DNA of 64,000 nucleotides. Source: Escherichia coli. GTDB lineage: Bacteria > Pseudomonadota > Gammaproteobacteria > Enterobacterales > Enterobacteriaceae. The notes beneath the pieces are model-generated. The model searched no databases. It saw only the letters and a program-made list of their open reading frames with translations, and was not told where the DNA came from. The stretch is from NCBI RefSeq assembly GCF_051903065.1, contig NZ_CP178438.1, one strand, 5' to 3'. This document shows positions 12,101-51,866 of the stretch, piece by piece. Position 1 is the stretch's first letter. Each line of letters begins with the position of its first letter. A program made the position numbers and the translations under genes.

Positions 12101-12418
12101 ATGATCGTGCAAAAAGAGCTGGTTGCTATTTACGATTATGAGGTCCCTGTACCTGAAGATCCGTTTTCCTTCAGACTTGAGATCCATAAATGCTCTGAAT
12201 TATTTACAGGTTCCGTCTATCGACGGGAGCGATTCCGGCTACATCCAACATTTCATCAACGTGATCGAGAAGATGCTGACCCGCTAATAAATGATGCGTT
12301 GATTTATATAAGAGATGAGTGTATTGATGAGCGGAAATTACGAGGTAAATCACCTGAAACTGTAATAGCAATTTTTAATCGTGAACTACAGAATATATTC
12401 AACCAAGAAATAGAATAA
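12101..12418 (+). CDS. yehK: Small uncharacterised protein (105 aa)
   Basis: Tracked ORF in an AT-rich segment; position between yehI and yehL. Confidence 0.6.
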   Translation: MIVQKELVAIYDYEVPVPEDPFSFRLEIHKCSELFTGSVYRRERFRLHPTFHQRDREDADPLINDALIYIRDECIDERKLRGKSPETVIAIFNRELQNIFNQEIE

Positions 12419-12527
12419 TATACTCTAGATAATTCAAGTCGCAGCACATGCAACTTGAAGTATGACGAGTATAGCTTTATTAAAGGGGGAAGCGGTTTTC
12501 CCCCTTAGATGCGTTTCAATTTGCCCG

Positions 12528-12617
12528 TTACTTCAACAAATCAATCAACCGTAACAGAGCCACTAATAACTCCAGTACGGCAATGAGCACGATTAACTTT
12601 TGTGTCAGCGTGTCCAT
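12528..12617 (-). CDS. zorO: Type I toxin, 29-aa hydrophobic peptide MDTLTQKLIVLIAVLELLVALLRLIDLLK
   Basis: Hand translation of the minus strand: ATG at 12617-12615 preceded by AAGGAG Shine-Dalgarno, stop TAA at 12530-12528; matches the ZorO/ZorP peptide as I recall it; assignment of O versus P to copy 1 versus copy 2 is arbitrary. Confidence 0.75.
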   Translation of the reverse strand: MDTLTQKLIVLIAVLELLVALLRLIDLLK

Positions 12618-12798
12618 CCGCTCTCCTTATTAAGGAGCGCAACACCAGCACCTTACCCTTACACTGCCTGTCGATACTGGTTTACGTATGTTGGTACGAA
12701 ACGTTGCTCTCCGGATCAGGGCACCGCCTGCGGCACCACCCGTCCAGCAGCCAGGACTTAAAATTGGTCCGATCCGGCACAACCTCCCAACGGGCAGG

Positions 12799-12826
12799 AT
12801 TATAAATCTCATTCACTGAATTGCAA
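12799..12826 (-). promoter_or_regulatory. Predicted sigma70 promoter for the toxin mRNA (gives a 5' UTR of about 174 nt)
   Basis: Minus-strand -10 TATAAT (plus 12799-12804) and -35 TTGCAA (12821-12826) with 16-bp spacer; TSS predicted near 12791. Confidence 0.5.
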
Positions 12827-12849
12827 TGGAGTGTGGATATGGTTATAAT
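12821..12849 (+). promoter_or_regulatory. Predicted sigma70 promoter for the antitoxin sRNA
   Basis: -35 TTGCAA (12821-12826), 17-bp spacer, -10 TATAAT (12844-12849). Confidence 0.6.
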
Positions 12850-12855
12850 TTATTC

Positions 12856-12938
12856 GTTGGTACGAAATGTTGCACAATCAGCAAGTTAGCGTCACTGTAG
12901 TAAATAAAAGAACCTGCCTCACCAGCAGGTTTTTTTAT
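12856..12938 (+). ncRNA. orzO: Antitoxin small RNA (OrzO-like), about 80 nt
   Basis: Bounded by the consensus promoter and an intrinsic terminator; nt 12856-12873 (GTTGGTACGAAATGTTGC) can pair over 18 nt (one G-U) with the toxin 5' UTR encoded at 12689-12706. Confidence 0.7.
12912..12937 (+). terminator. Intrinsic terminator of the antitoxin sRNA
   Basis: Stem ACCTGC / GCAGGT, loop CTCACCA, followed by TTTTTTT. Confidence 0.75.
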
Positions 12939-13135
12939 TTTCTGCGATCTACTTTCCAGATATTTTTTGCCAATAGCCCACCATAAATATTCACATCCCG
13001 GTCAAATGGTGCGTTGAATATAAAATCGATGAACTTATAAATAAACATGAGTTATATGATGAATTAATAAAAACAGTAATCATTTTATTAAAGGGGGAAG
13101 CGGTTTTCCCCCTTAGATGCGTTTCAATTTGCCCG

Positions 13136-13225
13136 TTACTTCAACAAATCAATCAACCGTAACAGAGCTACTAATAGCTCCAGTACGGCAATGAGCACGG
13201 TTAACTTTTGTGTCAGCGTGTCCAT
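13136..13225 (-). CDS. zorP: Type I toxin, 29-aa hydrophobic peptide MDTLTQKLTVLIAVLELLVALLRLIDLLK
   Basis: Hand translation; ATG at 13225-13223, stop at 13138-13136; differs from copy 1 by one residue (T9 versus I9). Confidence 0.75.
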   Translation of the reverse strand: MDTLTQKLTVLIAVLELLVALLRLIDLLK

Positions 13226-13406
13226 CCGCTCTCCTTATTAAGGAGCGCAACACCAGCACCTTACCCTTACACTGCCTGTCGATACTGGTTTACGTATGTT
13301 GGACCACGATGTTGCACTCCGGATCAGGGCACCACCTGCAGCACCACCCGTCCGGTAGCCAGGACTTGAAATAGGTTCGATCCGGCGCAACGTCCCAACG
13401 GTCTGG

Positions 13407-13434
13407 ATTATAAATCTCATTATCTTAATTGCAA
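13407..13434 (-). promoter_or_regulatory. Predicted sigma70 promoter for the second toxin mRNA
   Basis: Same architecture as copy 1: minus-strand -10 TATAAT (plus 13407-13412), -35 TTGCAA (13429-13434). Confidence 0.5.
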
Positions 13435-13457
13435 CGGGGTCCAGCCGTGGTTATAAT
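13429..13457 (+). promoter_or_regulatory. Predicted sigma70 promoter for the second antitoxin sRNA
   Basis: -35 TTGCAA (13429-13434), 17-bp spacer, -10 TATAAT (13452-13457). Confidence 0.6.
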
Positions 13458-13463
13458 TCGTTC

Positions 13464-13546
13464 GTTGGAACACGATGTTGCACAGGCTGTGGTGTTAGGC
13501 CTGAAAATAGTAAATAAAAGAACCTGCCTCACCAGCAGGTTTTTTT
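13464..13546 (+). ncRNA. orzP: Antitoxin small RNA (OrzP-like), about 80 nt
   Basis: Promoter plus terminator; 13464-13483 (GTTGGAACACGATGTTGCAC) is complementary to the UTR segment encoded at 13298-13317 with one mismatch. Confidence 0.7.
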
Positions 13547-13547
13547 A
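13522..13547 (+). terminator. Intrinsic terminator of the second antitoxin sRNA
   Basis: Stem ACCTGC / GCAGGT followed by TTTTTTT. Confidence 0.75.
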
Positions 13548-13657
13548 TTTACTATGATCTGCTTTCCAGATATTTTTTGCTCAAACAACTAATGCGCCAA
13601 ACATTTATTGCGCGTAAAATATCGTTTATTTCATTAATACATTTCAGGGATGAATAT

Positions 13658-14746
13658 ATGTCACCGCAGAATAATCATCTGCAGCGTCCGCCTGCTGCTG
13701 TGTTATACGCCGATGAACTGGCAAAATTAAAACAAAATGATACCGCACCTTGCCCGCCCGGTTGGCAGTTAAGTTTGCCTGCGGCCCGTGCTTTTATCCT
13801 TGGCGATAGCGCGCAAAATATTAGCCGTAAAGTGGTGATTAGTCCCTCCGCTGTCGAACGTATGTTAGTCACTCTTGCCACCGGACGCGGTTTGATGTTG
13901 GTGGGGGAACCTGGCACCGCAAAATCTCTCCTGTCTGAATTACTGGCAACCGCTATTAGCGGCGATGCCGGGTTAACCATCCAGGGCGGTGCATCTACTA
14001 CCGAAGATCAAATCAAGTACGGCTGGAACTACGCCCTGCTTATCAATCATGGTCCATCAACGGAAGCGCTGGTCCCTGCCCCGCTTTACCAGGGAATGCG
14101 CGACGGCAAAATCGTCCGTTTTGAAGAGATAACGCGTACACCGCTGGAAGTGCAAGACTGTCTGTTAGGTATGCTTTCTGACAGGGTGATGACGGTGCCG
14201 GAACTCACTGGTGAAGCCAGTCAGCTCTATGCGCGAGAAGGCTTTAATATTATTGCCACTGCCAATACCCGCGATCGCGGCGTCAATGAAATGAGTGCTG
14301 CGCTAAAGCGTCGCTTCGATTTTGAAACTGTCTTTCCGATTATGGATTTCGCCCAGGAGCTGGAGCTTGTCGCCAGTGCTTCGGCGCGTTTGCTGGCCCA
14401 TAGCGGTATTCCGCATAAAGTGCCTGACGCGGTACTGGAGTTACTGGTCCGCACTTTCCGCGATCTGCGTGCCAACGGCGAAAAGAAAACGTCAATGGAT
14501 ACACTAACAGCGATTATGTCCACCGCTGAAGCCGTGAACGTGGCCCACGCTGTGGGCGTCCGCGCCTGGTTTTTGGCGAATCGCGCAGGTGAGCCAGCCG
14601 ATCTGGTGGACTGTATTGCCGGAACCATCGTTAAAGATAACGAAGAAGATCGCGCTCGTCTGCGCCGTTACTTCGAACAGCGTGTCGCCACACATAAAGA
14701 AGCTCACTGGCAGGCTTATTATCAAGCCCGCCACCGCCTGCCGTGA
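13658..14746 (+). CDS. yehL: MoxR-family AAA+ ATPase (362 aa)
   Basis: Walker A GEPGTAKS; start chosen at MSPQNNH within tracked ORF 13577..14746. Confidence 0.85.
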   Translation: MSPQNNHLQRPPAAVLYADELAKLKQNDTAPCPPGWQLSLPAARAFILGDSAQNISRKVVISPSAVERMLVTLATGRGLMLVGEPGTAKSLLSELLATAISGDAGLTIQGGASTTEDQIKYGWNYALLINHGPSTEALVPAPLYQGMRDGKIVRFEEITRTPLEVQDCLLGMLSDRVMTVPELTGEASQLYAREGFNIIATANTRDRGVNEMSAALKRRFDFETVFPIMDFAQELELVASASARLLAHSGIPHKVPDAVLELLVRTFRDLRANGEKKTSMDTLTAIMSTAEAVNVAHAVGVRAWFLANRAGEPADLVDCIAGTIVKDNEEDRARLRRYFEQRVATHKEAHWQAYYQARHRLP

Positions 14747-33979: not shown

Positions 33980-34152
33980 GATGAGCATTCAGATAGTGGT
34001 TCACGCGCACGGGTTGCGCACCGCCGGAGTAAGGATTTACTGAGGCTAGCGACGCCATCATAACGAGCAAAAAGTGCGATCGTCAAAGGAGAATCGTGTG
34101 GAAATGCTGCATTGCTGACATTTATGCCAGCAATGCAACGTCAAAGAACTTT

Positions 34153-51689: not shown

Positions 51690-51866
51690 GCATCCGGCAT
51701 TTGGCACCGATTGCCGGATGCGGCTTGAACGCCTTATCCGGCCTACAAAACCATACAAATCAGTATGTTGAGCTCATTGTAGGCCGGATAAAACGCGCCA
51801 GCGTTGCATCCGGCATTTGGCTCCTGTCGCCGGATGCGGCGTGAACGCCTTATCCGGCCTACAAAA
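51690..51866. repeat. Cluster of REP elements (BIME)
   Basis: Repeated GCCGGATGCGGC...GCCTTATCCGGCCTACA units in alternating orientation between preA and mglC. Confidence 0.8.

Follow-up and report, generated by a model that had tools for sequence, protein, structure and literature searches.

The duplicated type I toxin–antitoxin module between yehK and yehL of an Escherichia coli chromosome is almost certainly the zor-orz locus

Introduction

What does the interval between yehK and yehL encode in this E. coli chromosome, and do the two similar units that fill it still look like working genes? The stretch of DNA analyzed here (the window, 64,000 nucleotides) had been read beforehand from its letters, and this sequence-only reading proposed a tandemly duplicated type I toxin–antitoxin module with the architecture of the Zor-Orz systems of E. 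coli O157:H7.

The zor-orz system was reportedly predicted in 2010 and validated in 2013–14, its mechanism is said to have been addressed in 2016–17 and again in 2019–22, and 2,212 E. coli genomes were reportedly surveyed in 2024. Four dedicated experimental papers (PMC3919570, PMC5397157, PMC6669753, PMC9860968) and a pan-E. coli survey (PMC11264685) deal with it. Overproduction of ZorO is toxic, and OrzO rescues the cells via its first 18 nt in an RNase III-dependent, Hfq-independent manner (PMC3919570). The full-length zorO 5' untranslated region (UTR) is translated poorly, and the form lacking its first 28 nt (Δ28) is active through the EAP/standby region, which OrzO blocks (PMC5397157). 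The ZorO peptide resides in the inner membrane, depolarizes it, and depletes ATP (PMC6669753, PMC9860968). Aminoglycoside tolerance was observed with the locus on a multicopy plasmid, but not with a single copy (PMC9860968). The system is thus already known and well characterized, and its identification in the window is correct; we regard positions 12476–13580 as almost certainly the chromosomal E. coli zor-orz locus, a tandemly duplicated type I toxin–antitoxin module.

Results

Two tandem units lie between yehK and yehL

The sequence-only reading had placed two units of about 495 bp, 608 bp apart, between yehK and yehL. Measurement of 12476–13580 agreed with that estimate: the two units, arranged in tandem, are 495 and 497 bp long, and their starts are 608 bp apart. 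A direct-repeat search returned a 300-nt repeat (12476–12775 and 13084–13383, 94% identical) and a second repeat of 73 nt (12898–12970 and 13508–13580, 95% identical), with a start-to-start spacing of 608–610 bp. In the full alignment of unit 1 (12476–12970) with unit 2 (13084–13580), 439 of the 497 columns were identical (88.3%). The flanking genes had been named correctly: the annotation of a RefSeq record that is 100% identical places yehK at 12101–12418 and the ATG of yehL at 13658, and Sakai has the same neighbors.

The region from yehK to yehL proved to be collinear with that of O157:H7 Sakai and about 98% identical to it, which bears out the proposed similarity to the published zor-orz locus. 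The intergenic DNA aligned end to end with its Sakai counterpart (~98% over 1.23 kb, with ~20 substitutions and one 1-nt indel). The EDL933/Sakai system (PMC3919570, PMC5397157; RF02083) shares the same yehK–yehL site and the same two-unit tandem layout, and it is identical to the locus described here in promoter boxes, ribosome-binding sites (RBS), UTR length, pairing segments, V1 triplets, and terminators. The only allelic differences from EDL933/Sakai are T9I in ZorO of unit 1 and T3 in unit 2, where ZorP has S3; ~20 further SNPs and a 1-nt indel relative to Sakai all lie outside the functional motifs. Because the yehK-proximal open reading frame (ORF) of Sakai is ZorO and the yehL-proximal one is ZorP, we assign unit 1 as zorO-orzO and unit 2 as zorP-orzP on the basis of sequence and position.

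Conservation between the two units was uneven. The toxin ORF (87/90), the RBS-proximal UTR (72/72), and the terminators (52/52 and 35/36) are nearly invariant, whereas the pairing segments (13/20 and 16/20) and the middle of the Orz RNAs (16/32) diverge. Conserved ORF, RBS, and terminators set against divergent pairing segments form the pattern that would be expected of selection for insulated pairs.

Each unit carries a 29-codon ORF for a hydrophobic peptide

A minus-strand ORF of 29 codons for a strongly hydrophobic peptide had been proposed for each unit, and both were recovered. The zorO ORF occupies 12528–12617 on the minus strand (29 codons plus stop, MDTLTQKLIVLIAVLELLVALLRLIDLLK) and was placed with the ORF list, the Sakai ORFs, and the ZorO sequence of PMC6669753. 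The ORF in the zorP position occupies 13136–13225 on the minus strand (29 codons plus stop, MDTLTQKLTVLIAVLELLVALLRLIDLLK), as given by the ORF list and the UniProt entry ZORO_ECO57. GRAVY values were 1.58 for the unit 1 peptide and 1.40 for the unit 2 peptide. An AAGGAG stands 5 nt upstream of both ATGs (CTCCTT at 12623 and 13231 on the plus strand), so that the Shine–Dalgarno sequences described earlier as good are indeed so.

An NCBIfam scan of both peptides matched no family; the peptides were therefore identified by exact look-up and from the literature. UniProt names the two proteins ZORO_ECO57 and ZORP_ECO57. The peptide of unit 2 matches ZORO_ECO57 ('Small toxic protein ZorO') exactly, as it does the synthesized ZorO peptide of PMC6669753. 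Its residue 3 is T, compared with S3 in the EDL933/Sakai ZorP (MDS...); ZorP has been defined as ZorO with T3S (PMC11264685). The peptide of unit 1 departs from ZorO at one residue, T9I, codon 9 being ATC (A at 12592 on the plus strand) compared with ACC in Sakai.

The zor and orz promoters of each unit share a palindromic −35 hexamer

A promoter scan of 12400–13700 found only four promoter-like sites, one per strand per unit, each with TTGCAA/TATAAT boxes at 10/12. The near-consensus promoter ascribed to the divergent RNA of each unit is thus present, and the −35 TTGCAA and −10 TATAAT boxes equal the published ones at all four (PMC11264685). TTGCAA serves as the −35 element for zor and orz alike and is kept in >99% of loci (PMC11264685 Table 3). 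Being palindromic, the hexamer at 12821–12826 is shared by the zorO and orzO promoters and was reported on both strands; the one at 13429–13434 is its unit 2 counterpart, shared by zorP and orzP. On the minus strand, the zorO promoter comprises TTGCAA at 12826–12821 and TATAAT at 12804–12799, and the zorP promoter comprises TTGCAA at 13434–13429, a 16-nt spacer, and TATAAT at 13412–13407. On the plus strand, the orzO promoter comprises TTGCAA at 12821–12826, a 17-nt spacer, and TATAAT at 12844–12849, and the orzP promoter comprises TTGCAA at 13429–13434, a 17-nt spacer, and TATAAT at 13452–13457.

Transcription starts were inferred from these boxes together with published landmarks, which for zor are a 174-nt 5' UTR, an RBS at +164 to +169, and the EAP region at +73 to +102 (PMC5397157). 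We placed the zorO +1 at 12791 because the UTR, RBS, and EAP landmarks all fit only there. The predicted zorO mRNA would then span 12481–12791 on the minus strand, with a 174-nt 5' UTR at 12618–12791, the RBS AAGGAG at 12623–12628 (+164 to +169), and the EAP region at 12690–12719 (+73 to +102). The predicted site for OrzO pairing (12690–12707, +85 to +102) lies inside the EAP region, ~60 nt upstream of the RBS. The 3' end was drawn from a GGGGGAA/TTCCCCC hairpin, which gives a putative minus-strand terminator at ~12481–12506. By homology with unit 1, the zorP mRNA would span 13089–13399 on the minus strand, with its +1 at 13399, a 174-nt 5' UTR at 13226–13399, the RBS at 13231–13236 (+164 to +169 from this +1), and the OrzP pairing site at 13298–13317. 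The zorP mRNA is ~98% identical to that of Sakai, and its RBS-proximal UTR equals that of unit 1 at 72 of 72 positions. With these predicted starts, the long zor 5' UTR that had been described is 174 nt in both units.

In the predicted folds, the RBS kept a pairing probability of 0.86–0.94, whereas the Δ28 truncation lowered that of the Orz site, in zorO from 0.64 to 0.40 and in zorP from 0.69 to 0.56. This loosening agrees in direction with published structure probing (PMC5397157). In the predicted full-length fold, the 5' end of the mRNA (GUUGGGA...GUUG) sits on the site targeted by Orz.

Both divergent RNAs belong to the OrzO-P family

A divergent plus-strand RNA of about 80 nt with an intrinsic terminator had been anticipated in each unit. 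Both candidates are matches to the Rfam OrzO-P family (RF02083, OrzO-P RNA antitoxin; gathering score 60 bits), and their predicted lengths of ~80–88 nt are in line with the expectation. The orzO sRNA is placed at 12856–12941 on the plus strand with its +1 at G12856 (Rfam match 12863–12936, 88.8 bits), and the orzP sRNA at 13464–13551 on the plus strand with its +1 at G13464 (Rfam match 13471–13546, 99.9 bits). Both matches span the full model (1–76) and recurred in a scan of the whole window. The predicted +1 is 7 nt past the −10 box in both units. The V1 triplet (+9 to +11) reads GAA in orzO (12864–12866) and ACG in orzP (13472–13474), as published for OrzO and OrzP, respectively (PMC3919570).

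Each Orz RNA is predicted to end in a hairpin of 12–17 bp followed by a U-run; folds and the Rfam alignment place these terminator hairpins at ~12902–12940 for orzO and ~13511–13551 for orzP, both on the plus strand. Fold z-scores against shuffled sequences were −4.5 for OrzO and −3.6 for OrzP. In a terminator scan, only the minus strand yielded calls for the Orz hairpins, the hairpin being symmetric with T-runs on either side; the plus-strand terminator is backed by the Rfam alignment and the folds. Sub-threshold Rfam matches to STnc370, the Thr and Trp leaders, and CrcZ were rejected as products of the palindromic terminator hairpin with its A/T-run flanks, as was a sub-threshold OrzO-P match on the reverse strand (13516–13626), which reflects the same hairpin.

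Cognate pairs are predicted to be insulated from each other

The first 18 nt of OrzO (12856–12873) are complementary to the zorO 5' UTR. RNAduplex gave −31.3 kcal/mol for OrzO:zorO, with 18 contiguous pairs including one G-U, and −34.8 kcal/mol for OrzP:zorP, with 19 of 20 positions paired (6 + 13 pairs around one A/G mismatch). Cross pairs between the units reached −24.4 and −20.2 kcal/mol, so that the cognate duplexes are 7–15 kcal/mol more stable. An experimental rule calls for 15 or more pairs in a continuous duplex or 17 or more in a discontinuous one (PMC11264685), and OrzO:zorO and OrzP:zorP each comply with it. The G-U pair of OrzO:zorO is at OrzO +13; Sakai, which is identical there, has it too.

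Within their first 20 nt, OrzO and OrzP differ at four positions (6, 9, 10, and 11), and at each of them the cognate zor site differs correspondingly; the differences are therefore compensatory. In published experiments, OrzP does not repress zorO, owing to V1 (PMC3919570). [quoted passage not shown] Position, peptide, Rfam family, promoter and RBS, UTR length, pairing region, and V1 triplets all agree with the proposed Zor-Orz architecture, and no sequence feature in 12476–13580 contradicts this identity.

The locus is variable but common in E. coli

The sequence-only reading had described the system as absent from K-12. This holds for the toxin genes only: K-12 keeps an intact orzP plus ~28 nt of the zorP 5' UTR. 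Its yehK–yehL spacer measures 306 bp and corresponds to the yehL-proximal end of unit 2, to which it is nearly identical; both unit 2 promoters and the complete orzP are retained. The toxin ORFs, the pairing sites, unit 1, and an ERIC-like element are missing from K-12, whereas the window holds the complete two-copy locus. Positions 13464–13483 and the body of orzP are identical to both Sakai and the K-12 orphan orzP. The orphan was published in 2024 as OrzPmg and was seen by northern blot (PMC11264685).

In the survey of E. coli genomes, 42% had two copies, 25% had one copy, 30% had orz only, and 3% had none (PMC11264685). Of 5426 complete E. coli genomes, 3382 (62%) matched a 60-nt probe of the zor ORF. 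In a sampled match listing, two-copy, one-copy, and orz-only loci each made up about one third, a rough estimate that is compatible with the published 42/25/30%. A count of 3389 genomes at ≥80% coverage was rejected as a two-copy count, since it also included single-copy loci; IHE3034, a single-copy example, matches the locus in two pieces over ~594 bp. The earlier description of the locus as accessory content holds weakly, in that the locus is variable, but the zor ORF in ~62% of complete genomes makes it common. Since 3382 of the 5426 complete genomes match this ORF, zor-orz is variable but common, and not O157-specific.

Discussion

The steps of the zor-orz mechanism were shown for the EDL933 alleles, and near-identity carries them to the present locus. 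A sigma-70 promoter would drive each minus-strand zor gene, yielding an mRNA that begins with a 174-nt 5' UTR. The fold of the full-length UTR would sequester the RBS and keep the EAP region (+73 to +102) closed, giving poor translation; once the first 28 nt are removed, the EAP region, which may act as a standby site for ribosomes, would open, and the 29-aa peptide could be made. This hydrophobic, helical peptide would enter the inner membrane, causing depolarization and ATP depletion. Through its first 18–20 nt, the divergent Orz sRNA would pair with a stretch ~60 nt upstream of the RBS that forms the 3' part of the EAP region, thereby blocking standby loading and leading to RNase III-dependent decay, with no need for Hfq. 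Compensatory differences in the pairing segments, with V1 GAA in one unit and ACG in the other, would insulate the units. In the unit 2 peptide and in the pairing segments of both sRNAs, the locus does not differ from the experimentally tested EDL933 alleles. We infer that both units are functional in this strain and that the T9I change of unit 1 does not affect toxicity.

Could the 29-codon ORFs be chance products of a duplicated non-coding repeat, of a REP- or ERIC-like kind or an sRNA gene pair, with no peptide made? A lone ORF of this length carries no weight, because 76 ORFs of 20 aa or more can be counted across the 4.5-kb stretch, and the peptide has neither an NCBIfam model nor an annotated gene here in the inspected RefSeq records. 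However, the ORF is identical at 87 of 90 positions between units while the neighboring segments diverge, and its length and an AAGGAG at optimal spacing are kept in Sakai, IHE3034, and 2013C_3277; in published experiments the peptide was translated, could be detected in the inner membrane with a FLAG tag, and proved toxic (PMC3919570, PMC6669753, PMC9860968). The duplication, the Rfam matches, and the identity with the reference locus therefore exclude chance, an explanation that we consider vanishingly improbable; a reading of the locus as a non-functional relic was rejected along with it. It is also very unlikely that the locus is zor-orz by descent but that T9I leaves unit 1 altered or inactive, with unit 2 as the only working pair. 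T9I is a minority allele: its exact 60-mer occurs in 53 of the 3384 matching records, and the peptide is found on 74 contigs, labeled merely 'hypothetical protein', against at least 1000 contigs for canonical ZorO; UMNF18 and isolates of O169:H41 are among its carriers. However, the change is conservative and toward greater hydrophobicity (GRAVY 1.58 compared with 1.40), and the promoter, RBS, UTR, and OrzO of unit 1 equal those of Sakai in all functional motifs. ZorO lacking its N-terminal 13 residues is still toxic, and the ALLRL motif (positions 20–24) is essential (PMC6669753). Because residue 9 falls within this dispensable segment, T9I is unlikely to matter for toxicity; ALLRL is unchanged in both peptides.

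An unlikely alternative, though the least improbable of those weighed here, holds that the Orz sRNAs mainly regulate other targets in trans and that the zor genes are a dispensable add-on. K-12 and ~30% of E. coli do keep an intact, expressed orzP with neither zor nor a pairing site (PMC11264685), and the K-12 orphan matches the orzP of the window across promoter, body, and terminator. Yet both Orz RNAs of the present locus still have their cognate target intact, the pairing segments co-vary in a compensatory way, and the repression of zorO by OrzO has been shown experimentally (PMC3919570), while other targets are without any report. Such a role would add to the toxin–antitoxin explanation, not replace it. 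The zor-orz module with two insulated pairs is the reading that we retain.

With zor-orz, tisB-istR1 and shoB-ohsC share a divergent, non-overlapping antitoxin sRNA with a 5' pairing segment of 18–21 nt, a long structured toxin 5' UTR that becomes active only once processing at the 5' end has opened a standby site, and a membrane toxin peptide of ~29 aa; the likeness drawn here is one of architecture. Unlike the LexA-controlled tisB, zor has a constitutive-looking sigma-70 promoter, and unlike both systems, zor-orz is tandemly duplicated with insulated pairs.

Annotation of zorO, zorP, orzO, or orzP was found in none of the RefSeq records inspected. With neither an NCBIfam model nor a RefSeq annotation, pipelines therefore leave an 'empty' intergenic region of 1.2 kb that in truth holds four genes, and the practical value of the finding is one of annotation. 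It also illustrates that a sequence-only reading can correctly recover a type I toxin–antitoxin architecture. Beyond this, ZorO(T9I) might not behave as canonical ZorO does, for instance in its potency or in the way it inserts into the membrane, or the Orz sRNAs might have additional trans targets, as the wide occurrence of the orphan orzP suggests; we think it rather improbable that either is the case. If T9I does differ, the two toxins of this strain would be distinct in function, each controlled by its own insulated sRNA.

Annotation and surroundings of the zor-orz locus

The zorO, zorP, orzO, and orzP genes were not annotated in any of the inspected RefSeq comparison records (L001–L005, O157:H7 Sakai included), and an NCBIfam scan revealed no model for the Zor peptide; UniProt carries names for ZorO and ZorP. 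In the flanking region, yehI and yehK appear as intact ORFs in the ORF list of the window. yehI, yehK, and yehM are annotated as frameshifted pseudogenes in IHE3034, as is yehM in 2013C_3277 and Sakai.

Immediately 3' of the yehK stop codon, an element of ~55 bp (12419-12473) was observed, which occurs once within the 64-kb window and at several further chromosomal sites in E. coli genomes. Genome comparison put the median number of occurrences at 5 per genome, with some genomes matching query positions 1-54 only. At the equivalent spot in IHE3034, a version ~150 bp longer is found, with the core GTGAATCCCCAGGAGCTTAC...GGGGTGA. The element gave a weak, sub-threshold match to isrH in Rfam. It may be an ERIC/IRU element, of which the window would carry a short form. 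Outside the zor-orz locus, two further Rfam matches in the window, both on the minus strand, scored above the gathering score: naRNA4/CssrE (51782-51859; 85.8 bits) and a Peptidase-S11 cis-regulatory RNA (33984-34064; 72.8 bits).

An orphan orzP in K-12

Alignment of positions 1487-1792 of the K-12 ER2796 record (L001) with window positions 13371-13657 showed that K-12 ER2796 retains orzP with an intact promoter and terminator, together with ~28 nt of the zorP 5' UTR; it has neither a toxin ORF nor a pairing site. An older statement that MG1655 is without the locus is contradicted by this orphan gene, which has already been described in the literature as OrzPmg (PMC11264685).

A shared -35 box and an Orz-like zor mRNA 5' end

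A promoter scan revealed a single palindromic TTGCAA in each unit (12821-12826 in unit 1 and 13429-13434 in unit 2), which, read on both strands, acts as -35 box for the two divergent promoters; the spacer measures 16 nt on the zor side and 17 nt on the orz side. As one TTGCAA serves both promoters, RNA polymerase binding for toxin and for antitoxin transcription may be mutually exclusive on one template.

The zor mRNA begins with a sequence (GUUGGGA..GUUG) similar to the 5' end of Orz (GUUGG..GUUGC). In the predicted fold of the full-length zor UTR, the mRNA 5' end is paired with the same site that Orz targets, which in zorO corresponds to +85 to +102 (12690-12707, minus strand). Such self-mimicry by the zor 5' end is consistent with the published EAP model, in which an explicit statement of zor/Orz mimicry was not found. 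Delta-28 processing removes +1 to +28 of the zorO mRNA (12764-12791, minus strand) and, with them, the zor self-mimic of Orz.
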